Assembly (NCBI GenBank): GCA_963828255.1
Contig: CAWHDZ010000007.1
Location: forward strand, 208,034-272,033
Reading direction: 5' to 3'
Source: an uncultured delta proteobacterium
GTDB taxonomy: Bacteria > Myxococcota > Myxococcia > Myxococcales > Anaeromyxobacteraceae
Length of the DNA: 64,000 bases
A model generated the notes under the pieces. It saw only the letters and a program-made list of their open reading frames with translations, made no database searches and was not told the DNA's origin. Shown here in pieces: positions 452 to 36,565 of the stretch. Within the stretch, counting starts at the first letter, position 1. Every line of letters begins with the position of its first letter. A program made the translations under genes and the position numbers.

Positions 452-3400
452 CTACCACCTCTCCGATCCGTGGCAGCTGTTGGCGCACGTCCGGGTCTGA
501 CCGGTCGTGCAGCCCACGAGCGACGCGACGTTGTTGCACCTGTAGCCGGCCTGCGTTCCCAGGTCCGTCCTGGTGTTGTTGTGGAAGGGCGCGACCGTGG
601 CCGCGCTGGTGAAGCCCGTCGGGTGGCACTTGTCGCAGCGCAGGTTCCTGTGGTCGCTGATGGTGTGCTTGCCCGTGGTGGGTGGGTCGCCGTGGCAGCC
701 GGTGCAGCCTCCGCCGTCGGCCTTCCCGTTCACGTGGCCGCCGCCCTGCTTGATGGTGCCGTTGGCGTTCACCGACTGCGGGTGACACTGGAAGCAGCTC
801 ACCGCGGTGGGCGTCCCGGTGTAGGTGGGGTGGCCGGTGGGCGGCATGGCGTGGCAGGCCGTGCAGGCGAGGGGCGCCGTGCTCGACCAGACCGCTGTGG
901 CGTTCGATCCCGACACCACGCCGAGCTTGAAGTTGCCGTGGCAGTAGGTGGCCGAGCAGCCGGCCGTCACCGGGTCGAACGTGGGAGCCGCACCCCCGGT
1001 CCTCGCCTGCGTCCCGAAGACCACCGGGGACGGTGGCGGAGCGGTGGCGTGGGCCGAGTCGGTCGGCACCGGGTGGCATCCCGAGCAGGCGATGGGCGGC
1101 ATGAGGTAGCTCGCCGTCGTGGGGTTCGCGTGGCCCGTGTGGGCTCCCACCGCGTAGGACGGGGCGCCGGCCGGAGCGACCGGAGGGGCGGCGGCGAGAT
1201 TCAAGTCGGTGCCGGCGAGGTTGCCCTTGCGGGCCGCGTCGCCGTGGCAGGTGGTGCACCCCACCGCCGAGGTGTCGTTCAGCCCGTTCAGGTGGCCGCG
1301 GGCGGTCAGGTTCATGGTGCCGTTCGCGTTCACGGCCCTGGGGTGGCAGATGGCGCAGGAGGCTGCGGTGACGGGCGCCACGACCGCCACGTGGCCGGTC
1401 GGGGGCATGCCGTGGCAGGAGGTGCAGGTCATCGCGGCGGTGCTGGTCCAGGTGGGCGTGGCGTTCCCGCCGGTGACGGCGCCGAAGGCGAAGTTGCCGT
1501 GGCAGTAGGTTGCCGCGCACCCCAGGGTTCCCGCGGTGAAGGTGGGGGCCGCGCCGCCGGTCCGGGCCAGCGCCCCGAAGACCACCTTCTGCGCCGGGGG
1601 GCTGGTGGCGTGGGTCGAGTTCCCGGGTACCACGTGGCATTCCGAGCAGGAGATCGGTCCCATGAGCGCGGTGGCCGCGGTGGGGTTCAAGTGTCCCAGG
1701 TGTGCGCCGACGACGGTGGAGGACGCGTTGGGCGGCGCAACGGGGGGGGCCGAGGTCAAGTGGATGTCCACGCCGGCCAGGTTGCCCGTGCGGGTGGCGT
1801 CGCCGTGGCAACTCGTGCAGCCCATCGGAGAGGTGTCGGCAAGCCCGTTCAGGTGCCCCCTGTCCACGAGGTTCAGCGAACCGTTGGCGTTGAAGGCCTT
1901 CGGGTGACAGCCCGCGCAGGAAGCGGAGGTGGCCGGCGCCGAGACCGGGACGTGATCCGGCGGCGGCATCCCGTGGCAGGAGGTGCAGGTGAGCGCGGCC
2001 GTGCTGGTCCAGAGCGGCGTGGCGTTGTCCCCGGCGATGCCGTTGTAGGAGAAGTTGCCGTGGCAGTACGACGCGGAGCAACCGGTCGAGCCCGAGCTCC
2101 AGAAGGGAACCGCGCCGCCGGTCCTCGAGAGCGCGCCGAAGGTCACCCTCTGTGCGGGTGGCCGGGTGGCGTGCCCCGCGTCGGCCGGGACCACGTGGCA
2201 CTCGGCGCAGGCGATGGGGGACCTGACGGCGGTGGCGGTGGCCGGGTTCACGTGGCCGAGGTGCGCACCCTCCGCGTAGGCGGGGGCTCCAGGCGGTGCG
2301 CTGGGCGGGGCAGACGCAAGGTGAAGGTCGGCCCCGGCCAGGTTGCCCTTCCGCGTGGAGTCGCCGTGGCAGTCGGTGCACCCCAGCGACACGGTGTCGG
2401 ACCTGCCGTTCAGGTGTCCCCAGTCCACCCTGTTGATGGTCCCGTCGGCGTTCACCGCCGAGGGATGGCACCTCGCGCAGGAGGCGGCGTTGACCGGCGC
2501 GGCGACCGCCAGGTGGCCGGCGGGGGGCATGGCGTGGCAGGAGGTGCAGGAGAGCGCGGTGGTGCTGGTCCAGATCGCGATCGCCGCGGATCCGGTCACC
2601 CCGTTGAAGTTGAAGCTGCCGTGGCAGTAGGAGGTCGAGCACCCGGCCGAGGCCTCGTTCCAGGCCGGCCGCGCCCCTCCCGACCTGGCGAGCGGGCCGA
2701 AGGTGACGCCCTGCGCCGGCGGGTAGGTGGCGTGGACCGTGTCCACGGGCACCGGGTGACATTCGGCGCAACCGATGGGGCGCATCAACGCCGTCGCGGC
2801 CACCGGGTTCACGTGCCCGGCGTGGGCGCCGACGGCGAAGGCGGGCGCGCCGGGGGGCGCCGCCGGGGGAGCCGAGCCGAGGTTCACGTCGGTGCCCGGG
2901 AGGTTGCCCGTCCGCGTGTCGTCACCGTGGCACGAGGTGCAGCCCAGGGCGGTCACGTCGGCCTTGCCGTTCAGGTGGCCCCGGTCGGCCAGGTTGATCG
3001 ACCCGTCGGCGTTGACCGCCGCGGGGTGGCAACTGGCGCAGGAGGCGGCGACGACCGGCGCGGCGACGGCCAGGTGGCCCACGGGCGGCATCTCGTGGCA
3101 GGAGGTGCAGGTCATCGGGGTGGTGTCGGTCCAGACCGGCGTCGTGCTCGTCCCGGAGACCGCGTTGAAGCTGAAGTTCCCGTGGCAGTACGAGGCCGCG
3201 CAGCCCGCGCTGCCGGCCACGAAGGTGGGCGTGGCGCCGCCTGCGGTGGCGATGGGTCCGAAGACGACCCGGGCGAGCGGCGGGGTCGAGGCGTGCGCGG
3301 AGTCGGCGGGCACGACGTGGCACTCGGCGCAGGCGATGGGCCCCATGATGGCCCTGAAGTCGACCGGGTTCACGTGCCGCTCGTGGGCGCCCACCGCGAA

Positions 3401-5701
3401 GGCGGGCGCATTGGGAGGAGCGACCGGAGGCGCCGAGATGAGGTTGGGGTCGGTGCCCGGGAGCAGCGGCTTCCGCATCTCGTCGCCGTGGCAGGCGGTG
3501 CACCCGAGAGCGGCCACGTCGGCCAGGCCGTTCAGGTGGGCGCCGCCGAGCAGGATGTCGCCGGCCGCGTCCACCGTCTGGGGATGGCATGCGCCGCAGG
3601 AGGCGGCCGTGATCGATCCGGCCAGCGGCGGGTGGCCGGTTGGCGGCATCCCGTGGCAACCGGTGCAGGCGAGCGGTGCGGTGCTGGTCCAGAGCGGCGT
3701 GGCGTTCGATCCGGAGACGCCGTTGTAGGTGAAGTTGCCGTGGCAGTACGAGGCCGCGCACCCGGCGGTCCCGGCGACGAAGGTCGGCGTGGCCCCGCCC
3801 GTCCTCGAGAGAAGGCCGAAGGTCACGCGCTGCGCAGGCGGGTTCCGCGCATGGGTCGCGTCGGTGGGAATGACGTGGCACTCGGCGCAGGCGATGGGGT
3901 TCATGACGGCCGACGCGCCCGCGGGGTTCACGTGCCCTTCGTGGGCGCCCGCGGAGTAGGCCGGAGCGCCGGGGGAGGAGACGGGAGGTGACGAGGTGAG
4001 GTCGATGTCCGTGCCCGGCAGGTTCGGGATGCGCCCCGCGTCGCCGTGGCAGCCGGTGCATCCCAGGCTGGCGACGTCGGCCTTGCCATTCATGTGGCCG
4101 CGCTCGACCAGGTTGACCGACCCGTCGGTGTTGAGTGCGGAGGGATGGCAGGTCGCGCACCCGGCGGAGCTGGCGGGCGCCGCGACGGCCACGTGGCCGG
4201 TCGGGGGCATCCCGTGGCAGGAGGTGCAGGTGAGGGGGTTCGGGTCGGTCCAGATGGGCGTGGCCAGCGCGCCCTTGACCCCGTTGAAGTCGAAGTTGCC
4301 GTGGCAGTACGAGGCGGCGCAGCCCGCGGTCCCGGCGGCGAACGTGGGGGCGGCGCCCCCGGTTCGCGAGAGGGCTCCGAAGACCACCTTCTGGGCAGGG
4401 GGCGCGGTGGCGTGCGCGAAGTCGCTGGGGACGACGTGGCACTCGGCGCAGTCCATGGGCCCCATGAACGCCCCCGCCTGGTACGGATTCAGGTGGGCCA
4501 GGTGGGCCCCGGTGGAGTAGGCCGGTGCGCCGGCGCTGGCGGCCGGAGGGGAGGAGGCCAGGTTCACGTCGGCGCCCGCCATGTTGCCGGTTCGCCCCTC
4601 GTCTCCGTGGCAGCTCGTGCAGCCGAGCGCCGCCACGTCGGCCTTGCCGTCCAGGTGGGCGCCGCCGGACACGATGGCGCCCGAGGCGTCCACCGACGTC
4701 GGGTGGCAGCCGCTGCAGGAGACCGCGGAAGTCCCCTGGACCAGGGGATGTCCGGTGGGAGGCATGCCGTGGCAGGAGGCGCAGCCGATGGGGGCGGTGT
4801 CGGTCCAGATCGGCGTGACCGTCGAGCCGGACACCCCGTTGAAGGAGAAGTTTCCGTGGCAGTAGGTGGCGGCACAGCCGGCGGTCCCGGCCACCCAGGT
4901 CGGCGACGCGGCGCCGGTGGAGGCGAGGGTCCCGAAGACCACCGTCCGGGCCGGAGGCGCCATGGCGTGGACGTCGTCGGTCGGCACCTGGTGGCACTCG
5001 GCGCAGGCGAGAGGCGGCATCACCGCGCTTGCCGGCATGGGATTGACGTGGCCGAGGTGGGCGCCCACCGAGGAGGGCGGGGCGCCAGGCGACGAGGCCG
5101 GTGGGGACGAGGCCAGGTAGATGTCGGTTCCGGGGACGTTGGGGATGCGGGACGCGTCGCCGTGGCACTCCATGCAGCTGTTGGCCGCGATCTCCGCCAT
5201 CCCGTTCAGGTGCGCGCCGCCGGACACGTTGATGCTGCCATCAGGCTTCACGGTCCCGGAGTGGCAGGCGTTGCAGCTCGCCGGAGTCGCGCCCGTCGCC
5301 ATCGCTGGATGGCCTGTGGGCGGCATGGCGTGGCAGGAGTCGCAGGTCATGAGGGCCGAACCGGTCCACCCGACCTTTGCGCCGGACCCCTGCACGCCCC
5401 GGAAGGTGAAGCTCCCGTGGCACATGACGTTGCTGCAGGTCTTGGCCACCGGGTCGAAGGTTGCGCCAGCCGCCATGACCATCGGGTTCTGGGAGAAGTC
5501 CACCGCGAAGCCCGTGGGGGCGTGGCAACCGGCGCAGGTGACTCCAGAGGAGAAGGCGCCGCCGCGGAGGTGGTTGGCGTGGAGGGCTCCTGCCGGCGCG
5601 ACCACCGCGGGGGCGGAACTCGAGGTGGTTGCTCCACATCCGGCGATGAACGAAGCGATGCTCGAGACGACCAGGAGGAGGTTCAGACGGGGGGCTCGCA
5701 T
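452..5701 (-). CDS. lipoprotein multiheme cytochrome c, CxxxxCH/CxxCH-repeat type, 1749 aa, ~47 heme motifs
   Basis: Lipobox FIAGC. Manual count 37 CxxCH + 10 CX3-4CH: a 4-motif N-cap, 8 five-heme modules and a 3-motif C-cap ending CHGSERW. Confidence 0.93.
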   Translation of the reverse strand: MRAPRLNLLLVVSSIASFIAGCGATTSSSAPAVVAPAGALHANHLRGGAFSSGVTCAGCHAPTGFAVDFSQNPMVMAAGATFDPVAKTCSNVMCHGSFTFRGVQGSGAKVGWTGSALMTCDSCHAMPPTGHPAMATGATPASCNACHSGTVKPDGSINVSGGAHLNGMAEIAANSCMECHGDASRIPNVPGTDIYLASSPPASSPGAPPSSVGAHLGHVNPMPASAVMPPLACAECHQVPTDDVHAMAPPARTVVFGTLASTGAASPTWVAGTAGCAATYCHGNFSFNGVSGSTVTPIWTDTAPIGCASCHGMPPTGHPLVQGTSAVSCSGCHPTSVDASGAIVSGGAHLDGKADVAALGCTSCHGDEGRTGNMAGADVNLASSPPAASAGAPAYSTGAHLAHLNPYQAGAFMGPMDCAECHVVPSDFAHATAPPAQKVVFGALSRTGGAAPTFAAGTAGCAASYCHGNFDFNGVKGALATPIWTDPNPLTCTSCHGMPPTGHVAVAAPASSAGCATCHPSALNTDGSVNLVERGHMNGKADVASLGCTGCHGDAGRIPNLPGTDIDLTSSPPVSSPGAPAYSAGAHEGHVNPAGASAVMNPIACAECHVIPTDATHARNPPAQRVTFGLLSRTGGATPTFVAGTAGCAASYCHGNFTYNGVSGSNATPLWTSTAPLACTGCHGMPPTGHPPLAGSITAASCGACHPQTVDAAGDILLGGAHLNGLADVAALGCTACHGDEMRKPLLPGTDPNLISAPPVAPPNAPAFAVGAHERHVNPVDFRAIMGPIACAECHVVPADSAHASTPPLARVVFGPIATAGGATPTFVAGSAGCAASYCHGNFSFNAVSGTSTTPVWTDTTPMTCTSCHEMPPVGHLAVAAPVVAASCASCHPAAVNADGSINLADRGHLNGKADVTALGCTSCHGDDTRTGNLPGTDVNLGSAPPAAPPGAPAFAVGAHAGHVNPVAATALMRPIGCAECHPVPVDTVHATYPPAQGVTFGPLARSGGARPAWNEASAGCSTSYCHGSFNFNGVTGSAAIAIWTSTTALSCTSCHAMPPAGHLAVAAPVNAASCARCHPSAVNADGTINRVDWGHLNGRSDTVSLGCTDCHGDSTRKGNLAGADLHLASAPPSAPPGAPAYAEGAHLGHVNPATATAVRSPIACAECHVVPADAGHATRPPAQRVTFGALSRTGGAVPFWSSGSTGCSASYCHGNFSYNGIAGDNATPLWTSTAALTCTSCHGMPPPDHVPVSAPATSASCAGCHPKAFNANGSLNLVDRGHLNGLADTSPMGCTSCHGDATRTGNLAGVDIHLTSAPPVAPPNASSTVVGAHLGHLNPTAATALMGPISCSECHVVPGNSTHATSPPAQKVVFGALARTGGAAPTFTAGTLGCAATYCHGNFAFGAVTGGNATPTWTSTAAMTCTSCHGMPPTGHVAVVAPVTAASCAICHPRAVNANGTMNLTARGHLNGLNDTSAVGCTTCHGDAARKGNLAGTDLNLAAAPPVAPAGAPSYAVGAHTGHANPTTASYLMPPIACSGCHPVPTDSAHATAPPPSPVVFGTQARTGGAAPTFDPVTAGCSATYCHGNFKLGVVSGSNATAVWSSTAPLACTACHAMPPTGHPTYTGTPTAVSCFQCHPQSVNANGTIKQGGGHVNGKADGGGCTGCHGDPPTTGKHTISDHRNLRCDKCHPTGFTSAATVAPFHNNTRTDLGTQAGYRCNNVASLVGCTTGQTRTCANSCHGSERW

Positions 5702-5723
5702 GTTCCCCCCAGCCTAGTCGTTG

Positions 5724-5829: not shown

Positions 5830-8800
5830 CTACCACTTCTCCGCCTTGTGGTCCTTGCCGTGGCAGTTGACCGTGCAGTTGCCGAAGGTCGTGCCCGTCG
5901 GCGAGCACCCCTTGAGCCCGCAGCTGTAGCCAGCCTGGGTGCCCAGGTCCACGACGTCGTTCTGGTGGAAGGCCCCCACGGCGGTCGTGCTTGTGTAGCC
6001 GGTGGGGTGGCAGCCGTCGCAGCGTTCCTTCCGGTGCTCGCCGTGCTCACGCGTCGTGGGGGGGGAGCCGTGGCAGGCGGTGCAGCCGCCGCCGTCGGCC
6101 TTCCCGTTCACGTGGCCGCCGCCCTGCTTGATGCTCCCGTCCGAGTTCACCGACTGCGGGTGGCACTGGAAGCAGCTCGCCGCGGTGATGGCGCCGGCGT
6201 AGGTCGGGTGGCCCGTGGGCAGCATGCCGTGGCAGGAGCTGCAGGTGAGCGGCGTGGTGGTGGTCCAGATCGGGGTCGCGTTCGAGCCCTTCACCGCACC
6301 GAACGTGAAATTGCCGTGGCAGTAGGTGGCCGAGCAGCCCGCGGTGGTGGCGTTGAAGGTGGGCAGGGCGCCGCCGGTCCTCGAGAGGGCGCCGAAGACC
6401 ACCACGGTGGCCGGGGGACTCGTGGCGTGGGCCACGTCGGCCGGGACGACGTGGCACTCGGCGCAGGCGATGGGGGCCATCATGTAGCTCGCCGCGGTGG
6501 GGTTCATGTGCCCCATGTGCGTGCCCACCGCGTAGGCCGGTGCGCCGGGCTGCGCCACGGGAGGCGCGGAGGTCAGGTTGGCGTCGGTGCCGGGGAGGTT
6601 GGGCTTCCGGTTCGCGTCGCCGTGGCAGCTGTTGCAGGCCATGTTGTTCACGTCGGGCTTGCCGTTGATGTGCCCCTTGGCGGTGGCGTTGATGGAGCCG
6701 TTCGCATTCACCGCGTCGGGGTGGCAGACGGCGCAGGAGGCCGCGGTCGCCGAGGAGACGGCGAAGTGGCCGGTGGGCGGCATCCCGTGGCACGAGGTGC
6801 AGGTGAGGGGGGCGGTGTCGGTCCAGAGCGGCGTGGCCCTGGCCCCGACGACCCCGTTGAAGGTGAAGTTGCCGTGGCAGTAGGTGGCGGCGCATCCGGT
6901 GGTCGTGCTGGTCCAGGTGGGGATGGCGCCTCCGCTGCGCGCGATCGCGCCGAAGACCACCTTCTGGGCGGGCGGGGTCCTGGCGTGGGCCGAGTCCACC
7001 GGGACGACGTGGCACTCGGTGCAGGCGATGGGGGCCATCATGTAGGTGGCCGCCGTGGGGTTCATGTGCCCCTGGTGCGCCCCGACGGCGTATGGCTTGG
7101 CGTTCGGCGTCGCGGCGGGCGGCGCCGAGATGAGGTTCGTGTCGGTGCCGGCGAGGTTGCCCGTGCGGTTCGCGTCGCCGTGGCAGGCCGAGCAGCCGAG
7201 CGCGGAGGTGTCGGAGACGCCGTTCAGGTGCCCCCTGGCCACGAGGTTGATCGACCCGTTTGCGTTGACCGCATTCGGGTGGCAGGGCGCGCAGGAGGCC
7301 GCCGTGACCGGGGAGGTGACCGGCATGTGCCCGGTGGGAGGCATGCCGTGGCAGGAGGTGCAGGTCATGGGGGCGGCGTCGGTCCAGACCGGGGTGGCGC
7401 TGGAGCCGGTGATGCCGGCGAAGTTGAAGTTGCCGTGGCAGTAGGTGGCCGCGCAGCCGAGCGACCCGGCCACGTAGGTGGGGGCCGCGCCCCCCTTCCT
7501 TGCCAACGTTCCAAACACCACCGTCTGGGGCGACGGGTTCGAGGCGTGGCCGAAGTCGGAGGGGACCACGTGGCACTCGGAGCAGGCCATCGGCGCCATG
7601 AGGGCCGAGGCCGCCGACGGGTTCAGATGGCCGAGGTGGGCGCCGACGGCGGTGGCGGGCGCGCCGGTGGTCGTCCTGGGCGGGGCCGACTTGAGGTTCA
7701 TGTCGGTTCCGGCGAGCGCTCCGACGCGGGCGGCGTCGCCGTGGCAGTCCACGCAGCCGACGTCGGCGATGTCGGCGCGCCCGTTCATGTGGAAGCCGGC
7801 CAGGACGACGAGACCGGCGGCATCGACGGTCTGGGGGTGGCAGGCGCTGCAGGAGGCGGCGGACGTCCCGGTGACGGGGGGATGGCCGGCTGGGGGGCAT
7901 GGCGTGGCACGAGGCGCAGGCGATGCGGGTGGTGTCGCTCCAGATCGGGGTCGCCGTCGAGCCGGTGATGTTCGTCGCCGCCTGGCCGGCGACGAGCGGG
8001 GTCGTCCTGAACGAGAAGTTCCCGTGGCAGTAGGTGGCCGAGCAGCCGGCGGTGACGGGGTTGAACGTGGGACTGGCGCCGTTGGCGGTCGCCATGGCCC
8101 CGAAGACGACCTTCTGCGCAGGGGGGACCGTGGCGTGGAGCGCGTCGGTCGGCACCAGATGGCACTCGTTGCAGGCGGTCGGGTGGGCCGCGGCGATGGC
8201 CGGGTTCGGGTTCAGGTGGATGAGGTGCGCGCCGTCCGCGTAGGCGGGCGCGCCGGCCGGAGAGATGGGCGGGGCCGAGGTGAGGAAGGGGTCGACGTTC
8301 GCCATGCCGGGGAGGCGGGCCGGGTCGCCGTGGCAGGCCGAGCAGTCGCCGCCGGTCACCTCGGCAAGGCCGTTCATGTGGGCTCCGAAGGCGATGTTGA
8401 TGGTGCCGTCGGCGTTCACGGTGTCGGCGTGGCATCCGGAGCAAGACGCGGCGTCCTGGCCGCCCACCCTGGGGTGTCCGGTCGGCGGCATGGCGTGGCA
8501 GGACCCGCAGGTGAGCGGGGTGGTGTCGGGCCAGGCCGGGGCCGCGCGCGTGCCCGTCACTGTACCCATGGTGAAATTGCCGTGGCAGGAGACGTTGCTG
8601 CAGGTCTTCGACGACGGGTCGAAGGTCGCGCCCGCCTGGTGGACCGACGGGTTCTGGGAGAAGTCGACGACGAATCCGGTCGGTGCGTGGCAGCCCGCAC
8701 AGGTGACGGAGGGGCCCATCGAGCCTGCCACCAGGTGGGTCTGGTGGTTCGTGCCCTGCGGCACGACCCCCGACGCGGTCCCGTCCGTGCTGGCGCCCTG

Positions 8801-8866
8801 GCACCCGAGGACCACGGAGGAGAGGAGGACGACCGCCGAACCGGTACGGAAATGGAGCGCGCGCAT
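5830..8866 (-). CDS. lipoprotein multiheme cytochrome c, ~1011 aa after correcting one +1 indel, ~27 heme motifs
   Basis: ORF 6047..8866 supplies the N-terminus (lipobox VVLGC) up to CASCHAMPP. Removing one G from the G6 run at 7892-7897 continues AGHPPVTGTSAASCSACH into ORF 5830..7788. Same caps as 452..5701 but with 4 modules. Confidence 0.88.
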
Positions 8867-13177: not shown

Positions 13178-13696
13178 TCACCTCGGAATGTCGGCCTTCA
13201 TCTCCGCACCGTGCGCCGGTGCCTGCCCGTGGGCCCCGCCCGGCTTCCCGCCCTTCGGTTCCAGGTACTCGTTCGACAGGGTGGAGACGGACGCCACCTT
13301 CCATCGGCCGCCCTCGCGAACCAGCTCGTAGCTCATCTTCATGTCGGCGACGAAGGTCGGCCCGTCGGGCTCTCCGGGCTTCGTGTGGCGGTCGTGGTAG
13401 CGCCACCTCTCGCGGGTCTCGACGGTGCCTGCGTCCCCGGTCGTCGAGGCGCTCGTCACCTCGAAGGCATCGATCCGGCTCTCGAGAACCAGCTTCGCCG
13501 AGGTCTTGAGGTCCACGAGCACCTGCACGCGCCCCATCTCCTTCGCGGTGGCCAGGTTGGCAAGCGGCGAGGCGTCGCCGCCGGCGTAAGCGCGTACCAG
13601 CGCGTCGTCATAGGCGCGAACCGCCTTCGCAGCTTCCTGCGAGGCGCCCTGGCAGGACCCGAGGACGAGGAGCGCAGTGGCAGCGAGCCGTCGCAT
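13178..13696 (-). CDS. lipoprotein of unknown function, NTF2/IMS-like, coupled to ccsA
   Basis: Lipobox VLGSC; start overlaps the ccsA stop; C-terminal YELVREGGRWKV strand pattern. Confidence 0.75.
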   Translation of the reverse strand: MRRLAATALLVLGSCQGASQEAAKAVRAYDDALVRAYAGGDASPLANLATAKEMGRVQVLVDLKTSAKLVLESRIDAFEVTSASTTGDAGTVETRERWRYHDRHTKPGEPDGPTFVADMKMSYELVREGGRWKVASVSTLSNEYLEPKGGKPGGAHGQAPAHGAEMKADIPR

Positions 13697-18700: not shown

Positions 18701-18870
18701 GGCCGAGGCGTTCGACGTTGCGGCGACCGCGGTCTGGGTGAGATCGCCGTGGCAGAGGGTGCAGCCGGAGCGGCTCAGGTTGACGGTGCCGTCCACGTGG
18801 GTCGCGGCGACCACCGTCGTCGCCGTGTTGCCCGCGCCGTGGCAGGTCGCGCAGGTGGCGTTGGCAGGGT
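15769..18870. repeat. copy 1 of a ~3.1-kb near-identical direct repeat (copy 2 at ~23458-26560)
   Basis: Offset 7689 bp; only a few substitutions visible over the first ~2.4 kb. Confidence 0.92.
15770..15805 (-). terminator. GC-rich stem-loop after giant cytochrome gene 1 (no U-tract)
   Basis: GGGGCGGCGGC-14 nt-GCCGCCGCCCC; identical copy at 23459-23494. Confidence 0.55.
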
Positions 18871-23363: not shown

Positions 23364-23457
23364 GCAGAATTCTCAGGATTCGGCCGAACGGGACCGCTCG
23401 ACGGGAAGGCAGCTGGTCACCGTTCCGGGTGCCAGGGGGTCACGTTCAGTGAACAGC

Positions 23458-26400: not shown

Positions 26401-26560
26401 TCGACGTTGCGGCGACCGCGGTCTGGGCGAGGTCGCCGTGGCAGAGGGTGCAGCCGGAGCGGCTCAGGTTGACGGTGCCGTCCACGTGGGTCGCGGCGAC
26501 GACGGTGGTGGCCGTGTTGCCCGCGCCGTGGCAGGTCGCGCAGGTGGCGTTGGCAGGGTG
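23458..26560. repeat. copy 2 of the ~3.1-kb near-identical direct repeat
   Basis: Matches 15769-18870, including the stop codon and downstream hairpin. Confidence 0.92.
23459..23494 (-). terminator. GC-rich stem-loop after giant cytochrome gene 2
   Basis: Identical to 15770-15805. Confidence 0.55.
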
Positions 26561-29500
26561 GTGGCTCGCGGCGGTGAGCGCAGGCGGCGCGCCGTGGCAG
26601 GAGGTGCAGGAGAGCGTCGCGACCGTCTTCCAGGTGGGCGTGGCGATGGCGCCGGCGCCGCCGGCGAAGTTGCCGTGACAGTAGGTGTTGGAGCAGGTCC
26701 CACCCGCGCCGGCGTAGGTCGAGGTGACGCCGCCGGTGTTGGAGAGGTTGGCGAGCGTGACCGTTCCGGCCGTCGCGACGCCCGTCTTGTGGACCTGGAC
26801 CGTCGGGACGACGTGGCAGGCGTTGCAGAGGACCGGGCGGGACCGCGTCCCGAGGACGTGCGACGCGTGCACGCCGACGCCGTTCGCAGTGGCGGGGGCC
26901 GTGAGGCCGTAGGTGTCGGGGGAACCAACGCCCCTGGGGGCCGCGCCGACGTTCGGGTCCTGCGTGCCGGTGGCGACGAGCGTGCCGCCGTGGCAGGTGA
27001 CGCAGGTGAGGGTGGAGGTGTTGACGACGCCATTCACGTGCAGTCCGCCGGCGACGTTGACGACTCCGGCCGCGTTGACGGTTCCGCCGTGGCAACTCGC
27101 GCAGGTGGTGATCGCGGCGGCGTTGTGGTGGTTCGCAGTCGTGGGAGGCGACTTGTGGCAGCTGCCGCAATCGGCGGCGGCGCCGTTCCAGGTCCAACTC
27201 GTCACGCTGCCCCGCGTCGTCGTCGCGTTGAGCGAGGAGCCGTGGCAGTAAGTCGCGCACGTCGTCTGCGTCGTCGTCCCGTTCCCCTGGACGAAGGTGG
27301 GAGCGAACGCGCCCAGGTTGGCGCCGGTGGCGGTGGCGAATGTCACGTTCACGACGTTGTTGGAGTGGGCGTTGCTCGTGTTGTTCGGGTGGCACTCGGT
27401 ACAGGCCACCGGCTTGTAGACCGCGCCCGCCGCTGCCGGGTTCACGTGGCCGAGGTGCGTGCCGACCGCGACGCCCGTCGCGGCGCCCGCCGTGTCGACC
27501 GGAGGTGCCGCCACCTGGTTCACGTCGGCGCCGGCGACGCTGACGCGACCGCTGGTGCCGTGGCACGAGGTGCAGGACATGTTGGAGAGGTCGACAGCGC
27601 CATCGACGTGACCCGCCGCGCTGATGATGGACTGGGTGGCATTGCTGTAGTTGCCGTGGCAGTTGCCGCAGGTGGCGAGCGTGGAGCCGGCCGGGTGGGT
27701 GCCGCCCGGAGGCGTGCCGTGGCAGGAGGTGCAGGTCGTCGCCGCGGCGGTCCAGGTGATGGCGCCGGCGCCGACACCGTTCGTGAAGTTGCCGTGGCAG
27801 TAAGTGTTGGAGCAGGTGCTGCCGGCGTAGGAGGGGGCCGGGAAGGTGGTCCCGGTGCCGGTCCGCGCCAGCGTCCCGAAGACGACGTTGGGCGCGCCGT
27901 TGGCGTGGAGCGGGGTGGCCGGGATGGCGGCGTTGTGGCACTCGCTGCAGGCGACCTGCTTGGAGAAGCTTGGGCCGCCGGCGGCGCCGGTGAAGAGGTG
28001 CTTCGCGTGGGCGCCGACCTTGGCGCCCGTCGAGAGGTTGGTCGCATCGACCGGAGGAGAGGACGAGAAGGCGACGGCATTGGCGTCGGCGCCGGTGCGG
28101 GCCGGATCGCCGTGGCAGGTGGTGCAGGTCTGGGTGGTGTATTCGATGACGCCGTTCACGTGAGTCGCCACGTTGACGGCGACACCGGTGTAGCCCGTGT
28201 GGCAGGAGCCGCAATCGGTGCGGTTCGGGTGGAAGCGCCCGGTCGACGTCGTCGACGGCGGCATCCCGTGGCAGGAGGCGCAGACGAGCGTGGCGGCCGC
28301 GGTCCAGGCCGGGGTCACGTTGGTCGCGCCTACGCCGCCGCCGAGGTTGCCGTGGCAGTAGGTGTTGGAGCAGGTGAGGGTGGTGGTGGAGTAGCTGGCC
28401 GTGGTGATGCCACCGGTCGTCGACAGGTTGGCGAGCCCAACCGTGCCGGTCGTCGCGACGCCGGTCTTGTGGACCTGGGCGGTGGGAACGACGTGGCAGG
28501 CGTTGCAGAGCACCGGACGGGAGCGGGTGCCGAGGACGTGCGAGGCGTGCACGCCGACGCCGCGGGCGGTGGTGATGACGGTGCCATAGGTGTCGGGGGA
28601 GCCTGCGCCCCTGGGTGCGGCGCCGACGTTCGGGTCCTGCGTGCCGGTGGCGACGAGCGTGCCGCCGTGGCAGGTGGTGCAGGTGAGCGTCGAGGTATTG
28701 ACGGCGCCGTTCACGTGCAGGCCTCCGGCGACGTTGACGACTCCGGCCGCGTTGACGGTTCCGCCGTGGCAGCTCGCGCAGGTGGTGAGCGCCGCGGCGT
28801 TGTGGTGGTTGGCGGTGGTCGGAGGCGACTTGTGGCAGCTGCCGCAGTCGGCAGCCGCGCCGTTCCAGGTCCAGGAGGTCACGCTACCCCGCGTCGTCGT
28901 CGCGTTCAGCGAGGAGCCGTGGCAGTAGGTGGCGCAGGTGGTCTGGGTGGTGGTGCCGTTGCCCTGGACGAGGGTGGGAGCGAACGCGCCCAGGTTCGCG
29001 CCGGTGGCGGTGGCGAACGTCACGTTGACGACGCTGTTCGAGTGGGCGCTGCTCGTGTTGTTCGGATGGCACTCGGTACAGGTCACCGGCTTGTAGACCG
29101 CGCCCGCCGCTGCCGGGTTCACGTGGCCGAGGTGGGTTCCGACCGCGACGCCTGTCGATGCGCCCGCCGTGTCGATCGGGGGAGCGGCGGCCTGGTTCAG
29201 GTCCGCGCCGGCCACGCTCGCGCGAGCGGCGGTGCCGTGGCAGGAGGTGCAGGTGAGGTTGTCGACGTCGATGACGCCGTTCAGGTGGTTGGCGCCGACG
29301 GTCGTCGCCGTGTAGCCGGTGTGGCAGTTCGCGCAGGTAGCGCCGGCCGGGTGGGTCCCGCCGGGGGGCGTGCCGTGGCAGGTGCCGCAGTTCGCCGCGG
29401 CGACGCCGCCGAGCCAGGACGGGGCGAGAGTGGTCGCGCCGTTCGTGAAGTTGCCGTGGCAGTAGACGTTGGAGCAGGTGCCCGCGCCGTTCGTCCCCGC

Positions 29501-32500
29501 GCCGGTGGTGCTGCCCGCGTAGGCGGCGGTGGTGATGCCGCCCGTCCTGGCGAGCGTTCCGAAGGCCACGACGGCGCGAGCACCGCCGGTGCCGACGCCC
29601 GTCGCGTGGGCGACGTCGCCCGCGCCGGGAACCGTATGGCACTCGTTGCAGGCGAGCGGCGTGGAGCGCCAGCGCGTGCCGTTCAGGTGGGCCGCGTGTG
29701 CGCCGACCGCGGCGGCCGTCGCAGCGGTTGCGCCGGTGGTGTCGGCGGCGGTGGCGTTGAAGCCGGGCGCCGAGGCGCTCGACGTCGCGGCGACCGCGGT
29801 CTGGGCGAGATCGCCGTGGCAGAGGGTGCAGCCGGTCCGGCTCAGGTTGACGGTGCCGTCCACATGGGTGGCAGCGACCACGGTCGTCGCCGTGTTGCCC
29901 GCGCCGTGGCAGGTCGCGCAGGTGGCGTTGGCAGGGTGGTGGCTTGCGGCGGTGAGCGCAGGGGGCGCGCCGTGGCAAGAGGTGCAGGAGAGCGTGGCGG
30001 CCGCGGTCCAGGCCGGGGTCACGTTGGTCGCGCCTACGCCGCCGCCGAGGTTGCCGTGGCAGTAGGTGTTGGAGCAGGTGAGGGTGGTGGTGGAGTAGCT
30101 GGCCGTGGTGATGCCACCGGTCGTCGACAGGTTGGCGAGCCCAACCGTGCCGGTCGTCGCGACGCCGGTCTTGTGGACCTGGGCGGTGGGAACGACGTGG
30201 CAGGCGTTGCAGAGCACCGGACGGGAGCGGGTGCCGAGGACGTGCGAGGCGTGCACGCCGACGCCGCGGGCGGTGGTGAGGACGGTGCCATAGGTGTCGG
30301 GGGAGCCTGCGCCCCTGGGTGCGGCGCCGACGTTCGGGTCCTGCGTGCCGGTGGCGACGAGCGTGCCGCCGTGGCAGGTGGTGCAGGTGAGCGTCGAGGT
30401 ATTGACGGCGCCGTTCACGTGCAGGCCTCCGGCGACGTTGACGACTCCGGCCGCGGTGACCGTGCCACCGTGGCAGCTCGCGCAGGTGGTGAGCGCGGCG
30501 GCGTTGTGGTGGTTCGCCGTCGTCGGGAGGCGACTTGTGGCAGCTGCCGCAGTCGGCGGCGACCGCGCTGTTCCAGGACCAGGAGGCGACGCTGCCGCGG
30601 GTGGTCGTCGCGTTGAGCGAGGAGCCGTGGCAGTAGGTGGCGCAGGTGGTCTGGGTGGTGGTGCCGTTGCCCTGGACGAGGGTGGCCGTGAAGGCCCCCA
30701 GGTTCGCGCCGGTGGCGGTGGCGAACGTCACGTTGACGACGCTGTTCGAGTGGGCGCTGCTCGTGTTGTTCGGATGGCACTCGGAGCAGGCGACCGGCTT
30801 GTAGACGGCGCCGGCGGCGGCAGGGTTCACGTGGCCGAGGTGGGTTCCGACGGCGACGCCTGTCGATGCGCCCGCCGTGTCGATCGGGGGAGCGGCGGCC
30901 TGGTTCAGGTCCGCGCCGGCCACGCTCGCGCGAGCGGCGGTGCCGTGGCAGGAGGTGCAGGTCAGGTTGTCGACGTCGATGACGCCGTTCAGGTGGGCCG
31001 CGGTGTTGACGGTCGTCGCCGTGTAGCCGGTGTGGCAGTTCGCGCAGGTAGCGCCGGCCGGGTGGGTGCCGCCGGGGGGCGTGCCGTGGCAGGTGCCGCA
31101 GTTCGCGGCGGCGACGCCGCCGAGCCAGGACGGGGCGAGCGTGGTCGCGCCGTTCCGGAAGTTGCCGTGGCAGTAGACGTTGGAGCAGGTGCCCGCGCCG
31201 TTCGTCCCGGCGCCGGTGGTGCTGCCCGCGTAGGCGGCGGTGGTGATGCCGCCGGTCCTGGCGAGCGTTCCGAAGGCCACGACGGATGCGAGCACCGCCG
31301 GTGCCGACGCCCGTCGCGTGGGCGACGTCGCCCGCGCCGGGAACCGTGTGGCACTCGTTGCAGGCGAGCGGCGTGGAGCGCCAGCGCGTGCCGACGAGGT
31401 GGGCCGCGTGAGCGCCGACCGCGGCGGCCGTCGCAGCGGTCGCGCCGGTGGTGTCGGCGGCGGTGGCGTTGAACCCAGGAGCCGAGGCGTTCGAGGTCGC
31501 GGCGACGGCGGTCTGGGCGAGGTCGCCGTGGCAGAGCGTGCAGCCGGAGCGGCTCAGGTTCACCGTGCCGTCCACGTGGGTCGCAGCGACCACGGTGGTG
31601 GCGGTGTTGCCGGCGCCGTGGCAGGTGGCGCAGGTGGCGTTGGCAGGGTGGTGGCTTGCGGCGGTGAGCGCGGGAGGCGCCCCGTGGCAGGCGGTGCAGG
31701 AGAGCGTGGCGACCGTCTTCCAGGTGGGCGTGGCGATGGCGCCGGCGCCGCCGGCGAAGTTGCCATGGCAATAGGTGTTCGAGCAGGTCCCGCCCGCACC
31801 CGCGTAGGTCGAGGTGACGCCGCCGGTGTTGGAGAGGTTGGCGAGCGCGACCGCTCCGGCCGTCGCGACGCCCGTCTTGTGGACCTGGACCGTGGGAACG
31901 ACGTGGCAGGCGTTGCAGAGCACCGGACGGGAGCGGGTGCCGAGGACGTGCGCCGCGTGGACGCCGACGCCGTTCGCAGTGGCCGGCGCGGTGAGGCCGT
32001 AGGTGTCGGGGGAGCCAACGCCCCTGGGGGCGGCGCCGACGTTCGGGTCCTGGGCTCCGGTGGCGACGAGCGCGCCTCCGTGGCAGGTGGTGCAGGTGAG
32101 GGTCGAGGTATTGACGGCGCCGTTCACGTGCAGGCCGCCGGCGACGTTGACGACTCCGGCCGCGTTGACGGTTCCGCCGTGGCAGCTCGCGCAGGTGGTG
32201 ATCGCGGCGGCGTTGTGGTGGTTCGCCGTCGTCGGAGGCGACTTGTGGCAGCTGCCGCAGTCGGCGGCGACCGCGCTGTTCCAGGACCAGGAGGCGACGC
32301 TGCCGCGGGTGGTCGTCGCGTTCAGCGAGGAGCCGTGGCAGTAGGTGGCGCAGGTGGTCTGGGTGGTGGTGCCGTTGCCCTGGACGAGGGTGGCCGTGAA
32401 GGCCCCCAGGTTCGCGCCGGTGGCGGTGGCGAACGTCACGTTGACGACGTTGTTCGAGTGGGCGTTGCTCGTGTTGTTCGGATGGCACTCGGAGCAGGCG

Positions 32501-35500
32501 ACCGGCTTGTAGACGGCGCCGGCGGCGGCCGGGTTCACGTGGCCGAGGTGGGTTCCGACGGCGACGCCTGTCGATGCGCCAGCGGTGTCGATCGGGGGAG
32601 CGGCGGCCTGGTTCAGGTCGGCACCGGCCACGCTCGCGCGAGCGGCGGTGCCGTGGCAGGAGGTGCAGGTGAGGTTGTCGACGTCGATGACGCCGTTCAG
32701 GTGGGCCGCGGTGTTGACCGTCGTCGCCGTGTAGCCGGTGTGGCAGTTCGCGCAGGTAGCGCCGGCCGGGTGGGTGCCGCCGGGGGGCGTGCCGTGGCAG
32801 GTGCCGCAGTTCGCGGCGGCGACGCCGCCGAGCCAGGACGGGGCGAGCGTGGTCGCGCCGTTCCGGAAGTTGCCGTGGCAGTAGACGTTGGAGCAGGTGC
32901 CGGCGCCGTTGTCCCGGCGCCGGTGGTGCTGCCCGCGTAGGCGGCGGTGGTGATGCCGCCGGTCCGGGCGAGCGTGCCGAAGGCGATGATGGCGCGCGCA
33001 CCGCCGGTGCCGACGCCCGTCGCGTGGGCGACGTCGCCCGCGCCGGGAACCGTGTGGCACTCGTTGCAGGCGAGCGGCGTGGAGCGCCAGCGCGTGCCGT
33101 CAGGTGGGCCGCGTGTGCGCCGACCGCGGCGGCCGTCGCAGCGGTTGCGCCGGTGGTGTCGGCGGCGGTGGCGTTGAAGCCGGGCGCCGAGGCGTTCGAC
33201 GTCGCGGCGACGGCGGTCTGGGCGAGATCGCCGTGGCAGAGGGTGCAGCCGGAGCGGCTCAGGTTGACGGTGCCGTCCACATGGGTCGCGGCGACCACGG
33301 TCGTCGCCGTGTTGCCCGCGCCGTGGCAGGTCGCGCAGGTGGCGTTGGCTGGGTGGTGCGACGCCGCGTTCAGGGCAGGGGGCGCGCCGTGGCAAGAGGT
33401 GCAGGAGAGCGTGGCGGCCGCGGTCCAGGCCGGGGTCACGTTGGTCGCGCCTACGCCGCCGCCGAGGTTGCCGTGGCAGTAGGTGTTGGAGCAGGTGAGG
33501 GTGGTGGTGGAGTAGCTGGCCGTGGTGATGCCACCGGTCGTCGACAGGTTGGCGAGCCCAACCGTGCCGGTCGTCGCGACGCCGGTCTTGTGGACCTGGG
33601 CGGTGGGAACGACGTGGCAGGCGTTGCAGAGCACCGGACGGGAGCGGGTGCCGAGGACGTGAGCCGCGTGGACGCCGACGCCGCGGGCGGTGGTGAGGAC
33701 GGTGCCGTAGGTGTCGGGGGAGCCTGCGCCCCTGGGCGCGGCGCCGACGTTCGGGTCCTGCGTGCCGGTGGCGACGAGCGTGCCGCCGTGGCAGGTGACG
33801 CAGGTGAGCGTCGAGGTATCGACGGCGCCGTTCACGTGCAGGCCGCCGGCGACGTTGACCACTCCGGCCGCGTTGACGGTTCCGCCGTGGCAGCTCGCGC
33901 AGGTGGTGAGCGCGGCGGCGTTGTGGTGGTTGGCGGTGGTCGGAGGCGACTTGTGGCAACTGCCGCAGTCGGCGGCGACCAGGCTGTTCCAGGACCAGGA
34001 GGCGACGCTGCCGCGGGTGGTCGTCGCGTTCAGCGAGGAGCCGTGGCAGTAGGTGGCGCAGGTGGTCTGGGTGGTGGTGCCGTTGCCCTGGACGAGGGTG
34101 GCCGTGAAGGCCCCCAGGTTCGCGCCGGTGGCCGTGGCGAAGGTGACGTTCACCGTGCTGTTCGAGTGGCTGATGTTGCCGGCGTTGTTGGTGTGGCACT
34201 CGGTGCAGGCGACCGGCTTGTAGACGGCGCCGGCGGCAGCAGGGTTCACGTGGCCGAGGTGGGTTCCGACGGCGACGCCCGTCGAGGCGCCCGCCGTGTC
34301 GATCGGGGGGGCGGCGGCCTGGTTCAGGTCTGCGCCGGCCACGCTCACGCGGCCGGTGGCGCCGTGGCACGACGTGCAGGTCATGTTGGCGACGTCGATA
34401 ACCCCATTGATGTGGGTGGTCAGGTTGACCGTCGTCGCGGTGTAACCCGTGTGGCAACTCGCGCAGGCGGCGTTGGCCGGGTGCGTCCCGCCGGGGGGCG
34501 TGCCGTGGCAGGTGCCGCAGGCGTTCGCGGCCGGCGCCGTCCAGCTCGGGACGTAGGTGGTCGCGCCGTTCCGGAAGTTGCCGTGGCAGTAGCTCGAGGC
34601 GCAGCCCGAGCCGTTCCAGGCTGGGCTCACGTTGCCCGTCTTCGCGAGCGCGCCGAACACCACCTCGGCCACCCCGTTCGAGTGGGCGTTGCTCAGGACG
34701 ACGGAATGGCACTCGCCGCAGGCCGTGCCGGAGGAGGTCGCGCTGGCCTGGAGGTGGCGCAGGTGAGCGCCGACTCCGCGGGCGGTGGTGGCCGTGTTGC
34801 CCTTGGCGTCCACCGGGGGCGCGGCGGCCAGCTGGGGGTTCAGCGTGCTGCCGGCGCGGGCCGCGTCGCCGTGGCAGGAGGTGCAGGAGAGGTTGACCTC
34901 GACCAGGCCGTTCACGTGGGTGGCCGGATCGACCGCCGTGCGCGTGGAGCCAGGGTGGCAGCTGCCGCAGCTGGCCGTGGCGGCGACGAACGGGTGGGGC
35001 GCCGGAGGCGGGCTGCCGTGGCAGCTTCCGCAGGTCACTTCCACGCTCCCGCCGGTCCAGAGCGGGCGGTTGTGGGTGGCTCCACCGAGGGTGGCGCCAT
35101 GGCAATAGTTGGTGCAGGTGAGGCCGGTCGGGTCGAAGGCGGGGGCGGCGCCGCCGGTCGAGGCGAGAGGGCCCCAGGCGAGGTCGAGGGCGCCGCTGGG
35201 GTGCGTGCCCTGGCCAGGAGTGGCGTGGCATTCGGTGCAGGCCATGGCGATGCGCAGCGAGCCCGCGTTCAGGTGGGCCTGGTGGGCGCCGACGCCGGCG
35301 GAGGTGGTGGCGCTGCTGCCCGTGGTGTCCTTGGGCGGCGCGGCGGCGAGATCGGGATTGAGCGCGGTGGCGACCCGGGTCGCGTCGCCGTGGCAGGAGG
35401 AGCAGGAAATCGCGGCGACGTCCACGCTGCCGTTCACGTGGGTCGACGCGTTGACGGAGGTCGAGGTGTAGCCGGTGTGGCACGAGGCGCAGTCGGAGCT

Positions 35501-36565
35501 CTGGGTGTGGGGCGCGGAGGGCGGGACGCCGTGGCAGGTGCCGCAGCTCGAGGCGGCCGGGTTGGTCCAGGTCGGCGTGTAGCCGGCGTTGCCGCCGGGG
35601 AAGGCGCCGTGGCAGTAGACGTTGGAGCAGGTCGCGCCGCTCCAGGACGGCGTGGCTCCGCCGGTCCCGGCGACGGTCCCGAACGCGATCTCGACCGACC
35701 CGTTCGAGTGGGTGTTGCTGGTGGGGACGGCGTGGCACTCGGTGCAGGCGGTGGCGTTGCCGTCCTTGAGGTGGAGGGCGTGCGCGCCCACCGCGCGGGT
35801 GGTCGTGGCGGACTCGCCCTTCGAGCCCGTGGGCGGCGCGGCGGAGTTGCGGGGGTTGAGCGTCGTGTCGGCGCGGGCCGGATCGCCGTGGCAGGAGGTG
35901 CAGGTCATGTTCGCGACGTCCACCTTGCCGTCCACGTGGGTGGCGAGGTTCACCGTGGTCGCGGTGTAGCCGGTGTGGCAGGTTCCGCAGTTGGAGGCCA
36001 CGCCCACGTCCGGGTGGGGAGCGGCGGGAGGCAGGCCATGGCAGGTGCCGCAGGAGGTTGCGCGGGCCTGGGTCCAGACGGGCGCATTGGTCGAGGAGCC
36101 CCCGGCGAAGCCGCCGTGGCAGTAGGACGCCGAGCAGGAGGAGCCGTTCCAGGCGGGGACCGCTCCGCCGGTGGTTGCGAGCGTTCCGAAAGCGAGGTCC
36201 ACCATTCCGTTGGCGTGGGCAGCGGTCGTGGGGACGGTGTGGCACTCGGCGCAAGCGACCGCCGGGCCGATCGTTCCGCCCTGGAGGTGGAGCTGGTGGG
36301 CCCCCACGGCGCGGGCAGTCACGTCACTTTCGCCTCTGGTTCCTTTGGGGGGAGCCGACGGGAGCATCGGGTTCGTGGAGGTCGCCACGCGGGTCGCGTC
36401 ACCGTGGCAAAGGGTGCAAGCTTTGCTTCCGCCGCCGGCCCCTCCGTCCGTCCCCTTCGAGGCCATTGGGCGTGGGTCGGAGCAACCTGAAACGAAGGCT
36501 ACGCAAACCCCTAGAATCAGGGCGCTAACGAAGCCATGGGTGCCACTTGACCGCAATCCCGACAT
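23501..36565 (-). CDS. giant lipoprotein multiheme cytochrome c, ~4354 aa reconstructed across four 1-bp indels, ~110 heme motifs
   Basis: ATG at 36565, lipobox FVSGC. Coding passes through ORFs 30989..36640, 32697..36254, 30415..33060, 28884..31295 and 23501..30418. Indels against sister repeat copies lie at ~33100 (-1), ~32910 (-1), ~31287 (+1) and ~30526 (+1). Span is 13065 nt = 4355 codons. 89 CxxCH + 21 CX3-4CH (manual count). Confidence 0.85.
25390..34390 (-). repeat. tandem ~1.7-kb three-module (15-heme) super-repeats inside the largest cytochrome
   Basis: Module A starts recur near 34378, 32667, 30958, 29250, 27573 and 25869; order ABC-ABC-ABC-AB'D-ABC-A'. Confidence 0.85.

Follow-up and report, generated by a model that had tools for sequence, protein, structure and literature searches.

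A cluster of six lipoprotein cytochromes sharing one five-heme module, putative heme wires of different length, and a candidate lyase for a decaheme head in an uncultured Anaeromyxobacteraceae bacterium

Results

Heme motifs and gene content of the cluster

In the window, that is, the whole stretch of 64,000 nucleotides analysed, a motif scan located 276 C-x(2-4)-C-H motifs within 452..36565, every one of them on the minus strand, and none in 36566..64000. The motifs are carried by six genes, g1 to g6, with 47, 27, 14, 18, 60, and 110 of them, respectively; shuffled g1 held a mean of 0.89 motifs, compared with 47 in the real gene. Along the window, the genes contain 8, 4, 2, 3, 10, and 20 full five-heme modules, an arrangement that does not follow size, and each of them (6/6) starts with a lipoprotein-type signal with a terminal Cys, as judged by eye. 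This recount agreed with a sequence-only reading of the same DNA, which had described six co-oriented lipoprotein genes with 2, 3, 4, 8, 10, and 20 modules and about 276 heme motifs in 36 kb. Besides the cytochromes, the cluster contains only resB, ccsA, and an ORF of 172 aa, and it is flanked by a di-heme peroxidase gene and DUF1015. Given that c-di-nucleotide riboswitches reportedly lie at omc genes, an upstream riboswitch was sought, and no Rfam match was obtained in the window at gathering thresholds; no tRNA was found either.

The five-heme module and the genes g1 to g4

In profile searches, TIGR01904 matched g1 and g5 at 275 and 277 bits, respectively, against a cut-off of 27, and PF09698 exceeded its cut-off in g1, g3, g4, and g5. 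The repeat unit is therefore identical in kind to that of the CxxxxCH/CxxCH domain c-type cytochromes (TIGR01904; PF09698 GSu_C4xC__C2xCH), and homologues, several of them from Anaeromyxobacteraceae, bear the CxxxxCH/CxxCH cytochrome name in NCBI and JGI. By comparison with the 20 modules and 110 motifs of g6, the longest ORF with a TIGR01904/PF09698 domain in five near-complete family genomes is 2,092 aa. Throughout, each module has one long CX3-4CH motif and four standard CXXCH motifs. Across 113 aligned two-module stretches, each five-heme module also carries five extra invariant or near-invariant His, and the extra His count per gene is about that of the motifs, so that each module would hold five bis-histidine hemes.

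Two modules modelled with AlphaFold in the absence of hemes (pLDDT 81, pTM 0.57) showed little secondary structure and an identical repeat pattern, a result that does not establish a linear wire. No PDB sequence matched g1 or the decaheme head described below, profile searches returned short heme-motif or stalk matches only, and Foldseek found no match for the module or the head. Compared with known structures (VIA), the module reached a best Z of 2.1, with unrelated proteins. These blanks do not demonstrate a new fold. A solved structure or tested function of the TIGR01904/PF09698 repeat was not found in the literature.

The gene g1 (452..5701, minus strand) encodes an intact lipoprotein cytochrome of 1,749 aa, in which an N-cap, eight modules, and a C-cap terminating in CxxxCHGSERW follow each other, and its orthologue in the relative G006 also has eight modules, matching module by module. 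As previously described, g2 (5830..8866, minus strand) has the same types of N-cap and C-cap around four modules, and the last modules of g1 and g2 are 79% identical. The g2 module number is four in the genome under study (G000) and seven relatives and six in G009; intact four-module orthologues are present in G001, G006, G003, G012, and G005. The gene g3 (9053..10909, minus strand) encodes a 618-aa lipoprotein cytochrome with two full modules, and g4 (11002..13011, minus strand), which starts with GTG, one of 669 aa with three modules that align to modules 4–6 of a six-module gene present in seven relatives. A single-base frameshift lies in g2 at about 7890. Neither g2 nor g6, which has four such sites, forms one ORF in this assembly, a feature absent from the sequence-only reading, and these indels are probably sequencing errors.

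Composition of g5 and g6 and integrity of g6

The gene g5 (15812..23251, minus strand) encodes an intact lipoprotein cytochrome of 2,479 aa with ten modules in the order A B P Q S R T P Q U and a decaheme head. The gene g6 (23501..36565, minus strand) comprises 20 modules in the order A B C D SRQ SRQ SRQ SRT SRQ U followed by the head, with 4,355 aa and 110 motifs (89 CXXCH and 21 CX3-4CH) across its four single-base frameshifts; the repeats inside it are 84–97% alike. The earlier observation that both genes share their N-terminal modules and the C-terminal head, at 10 versus 20 modules, was confirmed: modules A and B have 84% and 86% DNA identity, and the head ends lie in a 3.2-kb direct repeat. 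Its first copy (15769..19009) covers the g5 end and a 43-bp hairpin-like stretch past the stop, and its second (23458..26698) the g6 end and an identical 43-bp stretch. The copies are 98.6% identical, with two mismatches in the final 2.4 kb. It is likely that g5 is a second, differently assembled paralogue and that its 3′ end and that of g6 go back to a recent copying event, in one direction or the other.

The frameshifts of g6, at about 33100, 32910, 31287, and 30527, fall inside 2.6 kb, g5 and g6 are nearly identical over 2.4 kb, the contamination of the genome is 6.6%, and contig C2 repeats 17 kb of C3 at 99.7%. On these grounds, g6 could be a pseudogene, or assembly of a mixed-strain genome could have produced the g5/g6 tandem and its module count as artefacts. 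We regard both as quite unlikely, because the giant gene of G001 has 20 modules in the g6 order with species-specific sequences. Over 13 kb the two giants are colinear, with an identity of 82.5%, and third codon positions diverge most, with 0.67–0.77 compared with 0.89–0.92 at second positions before, between, and after the frameshifts, a codon pattern that points to purifying selection and persists downstream of the frameshifts. As for the tandem, g5 is set apart by a distinct upstream region, by its P modules, and by A/B modules at 84–86%, and an independent contig (X4 record 27, 23327-23591) connects a head end with the region upstream of g5. Non-triplet indels are also found in the G001 giant, at sites that differ from those in g6, and eight frame changes, some double-counted, occur elsewhere in G000 among 78 matched ORFs. 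At two of the four g6 sites the in-frame form was present in short-read contigs, for which sister repeats are a possible source; these contigs are too short to confirm module numbers.

The count of 20 modules rests on two frameshift-prone assemblies, since no read spans g6 and its repeats are so similar. The giant of a further relative, G013, has at least 15 modules, or 17 if A and B fall beyond the contig start. The protein database held no head homologues of 4,340–5,000 aa, which is weak evidence.

Module numbers in relatives

The sequence-only reading had proposed that each head comes in two versions, one short and one of double length, with the caveat that the 1:2 ratios might be coincidence. 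Such a design would mean that selection maintains each head at n and 2n modules for near and far acceptors. Module number is indeed conserved gene by gene across species, G003, G012, G014, and G041 each have two genes with one head type, and three of the five genomes with two N-cap paralogues have a 1:2 ratio, namely G000 and G006 (both 4:8, of one common origin) and G005 (2:4). However, the other two genomes have 4:9 (G003) and 2:6 (G009), and a single N-cap gene is found in G001, G013, and G012. The giants across relatives have 8, 9, 10, 16, and 20 modules and, in G013, at least 15. Likewise, g5 was not found at the locus in the three closest relatives (G001, G006, and G013), and among the candidates scored (at most 53 per genome) in 60 other genomes, strong matches to its P module came from G010 and G011 only. 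Stalk lengths bearing the head also form a continuous range.

Duplication of a whole array was rejected for both pairs. In detail, g5 is not half of g6, as their middle modules differ, and in the module phylogeny modules 1–4 of g1 do not form pairs with modules 5–8. Module orders, tree, and the ratios in relatives all speak against a short and a double-length version per head; the 1:2 pairing is likely due to chance, in line with the caveat, and selection for designed pairs is highly improbable. Modules were likely gained and lost step by step, which would have determined the lengths.

The decaheme head and its terminal motif

The 592-aa head of g5 (15812..17590, minus strand) was examined by homologue survey and predicted fold. 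It is portable: 35 of 98 head homologues sit on module stalks, with lengths of 2–10 and 14 modules, and the other 63 on stalks without five-heme modules, heme-free stalks included. Judging from homologue names, cultured Anaeromyxobacter species encode the head as well. All four matches listed for the predicted fold are multiheme cytochromes. The best of them, a weak one, is chain A of the Mtr complex in PDB 6r2q (Z 7.3, rmsd 5.2 Å, 243 aligned), which we take to be MtrA; OmcS reached a Z of 4.6 over 194 residues, and the third structural match, to the OmcS/OmcE filaments, a Z of 2.9. For the Mtr decaheme and the filaments there was no sequence match, and no MtrB partner was found (PF11854 had no match in the genome).

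At the extreme C-terminus, the head ends in an atypical CGCNGTGH (CXC-x4-H) at 15815..15838 in g5 and, identically, at 23504..23527 in g6 (both minus strand), a candidate extra heme or metal site. As the motif has no adjacent Cys-His, which is called critical in PMC7096707, it may instead be a disulfide or metal site.

The resB–ccsA cassette

Between g4 and g5 lie three minus-strand genes. The divergent resB/ccsB (14518..15729) matched PF05140 at 28 bits and the ccsA-type cytochrome c synthase (13696..14508), with a WGWD motif, PF01578 at 101 bits, both above the cut-off; scores stay below the TIGR03144 equivalog cut-off, and G000 encodes three further PF01578 genes. The third gene, the 172-aa ORF (13178..13696), neighbours ccsA at many loci; it had no Pfam or NCBIfam match, and its look-alikes in the Atlas are unnamed.

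Among 92 family genomes, 19 have both the cluster's resB and the head, one resB alone, two the head alone, and 70 neither, counts in which kin are non-independent and significance is overstated. Consistently, one clade of the CcsA tree (16 rows), to which the ccsA of the cluster belongs, is tied to CXC-type heads and another (nine rows) for the most part to heads that end in W; the genomes G011, G019, and G043 are represented in both. Two exceptions were seen: G082 has a CXC-type head and no match to the cluster's resB, and at locus L068 a CXC-type head adjoins a CcsA of the other clade.

A lyase for the CX3-4CH repeats was considered and rejected, as G004, G005, G009, and G021 have 18–25 PF09698 matches and no ccsA at 1e-25, and the cassette accompanies heads on module-free stalks (L072, L073, and L074). 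Hence, the maturation genes that the sequence-only reading had assigned to the cluster hold up in a more specific form: the cassette tracks the head rather than the repeats, and this co-occurrence makes it likely that ResB-CcsA is a System II lyase dedicated to the head.

Discussion

On the above evidence, g1 to g6 are fairly probably membrane-anchored single-chain heme wires, with lengths that arose by stepwise module gain or loss and, for the head of g5 and g6, a dedicated lyase. Each cytochrome would carry a lipid on its N-terminal Cys and reside in the outer membrane; GspD, the type II secretion secretin, exceeds the cut-off in the genome. Electrons would hop along the chain to the C-terminal decaheme head, which would touch an outside acceptor or partner. 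The idea of heme-wire spacers of different length with a portable tip is plausible and partly supported, by the five extra His per module and by the occurrence of one head on stalks of 2–10 and 14 modules and on heme-free ones. The heme-free stalks weaken reach as the purpose, since they show that a conductive stalk is dispensable for the head. The search for an electron donor found no porin gene among the flanking genes scanned and no MtrB match in the genome, in contrast to porin–cytochrome conduits (Mtr/Pcc) with a porin gene in the operon. In a fully extended state, g6 would reach about 140 nm, assuming 13 Å per heme as scaled from a predicted 27-heme, 350-Å wire (PMC11492766).

The same proteins could instead be an electron store, a heme capacitor at the surface or in the periplasm in which length means capacity and not reach. 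The cluster concentrates 276 hemes and holds 220 of the 532 CXXCH motifs of the genome's multiheme ORFs, a porin is not adjacent, and a capacitor has been proposed for a 40-heme Anaeromyxobacter protein (PMC2330069). However, the conserved, separately matured tip and the conserved module order suggest a directional geometry, lipid anchors and GspD are present, and storage can coexist with wiring. A store in place of wires is therefore unlikely.

Giant repeat cytochromes are common in metal-reducing bacteria. Their full heme loading is called unclear in a review (PMC7096707). A likeness in described features exists to the predicted wires of Desulfuromonadia in PMC11492766 (the 27-heme cluster 2, GSU2884/OmcA, OmcG, and OmcH), which are extracellular, modular, predicted to be long, and without a porin operon; g6 is larger and its host a myxococcotal bacterium. 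In contrast to OmcS/OmcE filaments, g1 to g6 obtain length from repeats in one chain, without polymerisation. By size, g6 belongs with the record cytochromes, although counting rules vary between papers: 86 motifs in Desulfuromonas acetexigens (PMC12133095), 86 CXXCH in Agromonas oligotrophica (PMC7096707), up to 87 motifs in a multiheme survey (PMC11492766), and 113 hemes in an S-layer fusion of Ca. Methanoperedens manganireducens (PMC7082337). Expression under extracellular electron transfer conditions is reported for the giants of D. acetexigens and Methanoperedens (PMC12133095; PMC7082337). Compared with these, g6 is a bacterial lipoprotein of one repeat with a module order conserved across species, and its predicted 110 motifs would surpass the bacterial maxima of 86–87 found in print. 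The literature searched, which lacks most subscription papers, does not name the cluster, a bacterial protein with 110 hemes, or a terminal CXC-x(n)-H motif; the supplements of PMC11475568 and PMC11492766 may list proteins of such sizes. It is possible, though doubtful, that g6 is expressed as a single-chain nanowire of about 0.5 MDa and 110 hemes, of constant length across species despite repeat homogenisation, with an eleventh heme on a new CXC-x(n)-H terminus of its portable head, attached by its own ResB-CcsA.

The simplest target of this ResB-CcsA would be the atypical terminal CXC-x(n)-H motif of the head. Dedicated lyases are known for the CXXCK of NrfA and the CX15CH of MccA (PMC7096707; PMC6976685), and in NrfI, the MccA apparatus, and SirE (for SirA) a paralogous synthase likewise accompanies a multiheme protein with a non-standard motif. 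The motif here differs in its extreme C-terminal position and its lack of an adjacent Cys-His, and is a candidate heme site.

Taken together, the cluster offers a series of lengths of one module, from 2 to 20 units, in which conduction versus length is directly testable, and g6 is a protein of near-record size that is supported across species. The link between head and lyase suggests a motif for heme attachment that may be new.

Six cytochrome genes built from one module

The window (70% G+C) is part of contig C7 of genome G000. A six-frame scan located 276 C-x(2-4)-C-H motifs, every one of them on the minus strand and within 452-36565; the other 27 kb had none. The motifs are carried by six minus-strand genes, g1 (452-5701; 8 full modules, 47 motifs), g2 (5830-8866; 4 full modules, 27 motifs), g3 (9053-10909; 2 and 14), g4 (11002-13011; 3 and 18), g5 (15812-23251; 10 and 60) and g6 (23501-36565; 20 and 110), each starting with a lipoprotein-type signal as judged by eye. 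The repeat unit has five motifs, one CX3-4CH and four CXXCH, in ~170-200 residues. These motif and module numbers bear out the sequence-only reading, which had not reported one frameshift in g2 and four in g6. Profile searches assigned the repeat to TIGR01904/PF09698, found in 28 of the 41 genomes searched and in 23 of 24 others of the family. The names of annotated homologues suggest that the family is Anaeromyxobacteraceae. Across 113 two-module stretches, five extra invariant or near-invariant His were found per module, one per heme, so that the modules would fit bis-His electron-transfer hemes. The AlphaFold module model was confident locally (pLDDT 81), the orientation of the modules was uncertain (pTM 0.57), and no solved structure matched it.

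Genes g5 and g6 have a conserved stretch in common in their upstream regions (23251-23380 and 36565-36700); it contains TGGCCTGTCCCGTGCA, is a candidate regulatory site and had no Rfam match. Directly downstream of g1, left of the window, lies a MauG-family di-heme cytochrome c peroxidase gene (G000:C7:207042-208151), with an 84% match from the corresponding locus of G001, a different species of the same genus. Upstream of the cluster, 38282-46497 is mobile-element-like, encoding a tyrosine integrase (38282-39643), a replication-relaxation protein (39933-41150), two DUF1254/DUF1214 proteins and an AbiEi antitoxin-type regulator (45793-46497). The DUF2202 protein (47035-47826) is 100% identical in the relative G006, where neighbouring orthologues are 80-90% identical, suggesting a recent transfer. 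Farther on, 49494-51575, 52645-53556, 54124-55683 and 58803-60359 encode Ig/fibronectin-repeat, outer-membrane beta-barrel (below the Pfam cut-off), carboxypeptidase-regulatory-like and PA-domain proteins. Elsewhere in this genome (G000), a second multiheme cluster (G000:C27:170974-188940) encodes a 42-CXXCH protein, two more PF09698 proteins, an NHL-repeat protein and a PPIase; in G003:C37, a cluster like it lies beside a giant gene with the head.

Module order and the 1:2 length pairing

The stability of module number, gene by gene across species, is real: the count for g2 is 4 both in G000 and in seven relatives, and for g4 it is 6 in seven relatives, the first three being lost in G000. With module types assigned by DNA identity, g6 reads A B C D SRQ SRQ SRQ SRT SRQ U head, and g5 reads A B P Q S R T P Q U head; g6 was enlarged by a three-module unit. 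Thus g5 is not a half-length g6, as the middle modules differ and the P type of g5 is absent from g6. The two genes share a 3.2-kb end that is 98.6% identical, with 2 mismatches over its final 2.4 kb, whereas the heads of G001 and G006 are 83% identical to it, which points to recent copying inside the G000 lineage. Identities among g6 repeats are mostly higher within a species (Q 88-96%, S 84-97%) than in the comparison of G000 with G001 (82-88%), suggesting that they are being homogenised while the module order stays.

The proposed pairing of short and double-length versions does not hold as a rule. In a tree of 75 modules, each g1 or g2 module pairs with its positional orthologue of other species, and the first four g1 modules never pair with the last four, which speaks against whole-array doubling; common ancestry of g1 and g2 is clear at the last module only and weak at the first. 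Five genomes have two N-cap paralogues, in ratios of 4:8 (G000, G006), 2:4 (G005), 4:9 (G003) and 2:6 (G009), and a single N-cap gene was found in each of G001, G012 and G013. A 1:2 ratio therefore occurs without being a rule, and is probably a coincidence. The giant gene is followed directly by g4 in G001, G006 and G013, and giants of other relatives have 8 (G012), 9 (G007), 10 (G003) and 16 (G011) modules. The last is an intact 3,902-aa ORF with 94 motifs (G011:C28:30365-42073, L009/L010), whose N-cap is of the g1/g2 type, whose 16 modules include P types and whose head is W-ended; judging from it, caps, stalks and heads would be freely shuffled.

The frameshifted genes

The broken genes g2 and g6 are probably real. 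Intact g2 orthologues are present in G001, G003, G005, G006 and G012. The G001 giant is colinear with g6 across 13 kb at 82.5% identity, with all 20 module types in identical order. Relative to it, each of the four g6 frameshifts is a single-base indel, and the non-triplet indels of G001 are at other places. Divergence is greatest at third codon positions in all stretches (identity 0.67 before, 0.77 between and 0.74 after the breaks; second positions 0.89-0.92). The in-frame form was seen in short-read contigs, which may come from sister repeats, at two of the four sites. In 78 other ORFs of G000 matched from relatives, 8 frame changes were found, some double-counted through antisense frames. 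Counting against g6, no single read spanned the whole gene, contamination of the assembly is 6.6%, 17 kb at a contig end is duplicated, and the G013 giant is heavily frameshifted (15 modules counted from the contig start). The duplication (C2:6631-23906, a copy of C3:1-17271 at 99.7%) points either to heterogeneous strains or to overlap in the assembly. Read through its frameshifts, g6 encodes 4,355 aa with 89 CXXCH and 21 CX3-4CH, ~424 kDa as apoprotein and 492 kDa with hemes.

The decaheme head and its resB-ccsA cassette

The C-terminal decaheme head of g5 and g6 is portable. Among 98 homologues (1,363-4,339 aa, many fragments), 35 have the head attached to a module stalk, with all stalk lengths between 2 and 10 modules, and also 14, represented. 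In the other 63 the stalk has no such modules; most of these have 13-14 CXXCH in total, and fibronectin or Ig-type domains occur in several. P0011, P0025, P0034, P0051 and ~50 more combine the head and four hemes with 1,000-2,800-aa heme-free stalks, under names from Anaeromyxobacter, Thermoanaerobaculia and Holophagales. The predicted head fold (pLDDT 73, pTM 0.74) matched multiheme cytochromes only, and weakly: 6r2q chain A scored Z 7.3 over 243 aligned residues at an rmsd of 5.2 A, and OmcS scored Z 4.6. The head ends in CGCNGTGH; a strict CXC-x(2-6)-H pattern ends 52 of the 98, and many others have a Cys..Cys..His..Trp variant.

Between g5 and g4 lies a cassette of resB, ccsA and a 172-aa ORF, found at a different locus in G001, G003, G006 and G013 (CcsA identity 93%). 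In 11 of the 17 genomes whose loci were read, the gene directly after a CXC-type head is cluster-type resB, also where the stalk has no modules; the same was seen at none of 10 W-ended heads. The CcsA proteins form two clades, one of 16 rows with CXC-type heads and one of 9 mostly with W-ended heads; an exception is the locus L068, where the head is CXC-type and the CcsA belongs to the other clade. A further exception, to the link between head and resB, is G082, a head-bearing genome with no match to cluster-type resB. As the sequence-only reading proposed, the cluster probably has its own maturation genes, and these track the head specifically: in 92 family genomes, among which kin are not independent and the distribution is patchy within genera, cluster-type resB and the last 162 head residues occur together in 19 and are both absent from 70, with resB alone in one (580 contigs) and the head alone in two (74% and 81% complete). 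Dedication to the repeats was ruled out, since repeat-rich genomes without this head also lack this ccsA. This distribution suggests that the cassette serves the head rather than the repeats, and we infer that the terminal CXC motif may be its substrate. Three further PF01578 genes are present in G000.

Discussion

The cytochromes would most likely be exported and then lipidated, loaded with heme by housekeeping synthases and the dedicated ResB-CcsA pair, and displayed on the surface, with electrons hopping along 10-100 stalk hemes toward a cap or head. The genome encodes GspD; no porin gene was present among the flanking genes scanned and no MtrB match in G000. Storage of electrons by the cytochromes is a live alternative to such conduction.

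The cluster observation is real, and the kind of protein is already known. Modular single-chain wires are predicted in Desulfuromonadia with up to 87 motifs (PMC11492766), an expressed 86-motif protein is reported as the largest in electroactive bacteria (PMC12133095), A. dehalogenans has 40 (PMC2330069), neighbourhoods with more than a hundred motifs are mentioned (PMC11475568), and one review gives 86 CXXCH and treats dedicated lyases (PMC7096707); PMC6976685, PMC2825233 and PMC13013709 give context only. The 110 motifs of g6 exceed the bacterial maxima of 86-87 in these papers and approach the 113 of an archaeal protein (PMC7082337). In the main texts of the literature searched, we found no g6-sized bacterial protein, conserved 20-module order or head-specific lyase. 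The 110-motif gene and the link between lyase and head are the points that deserve attention.
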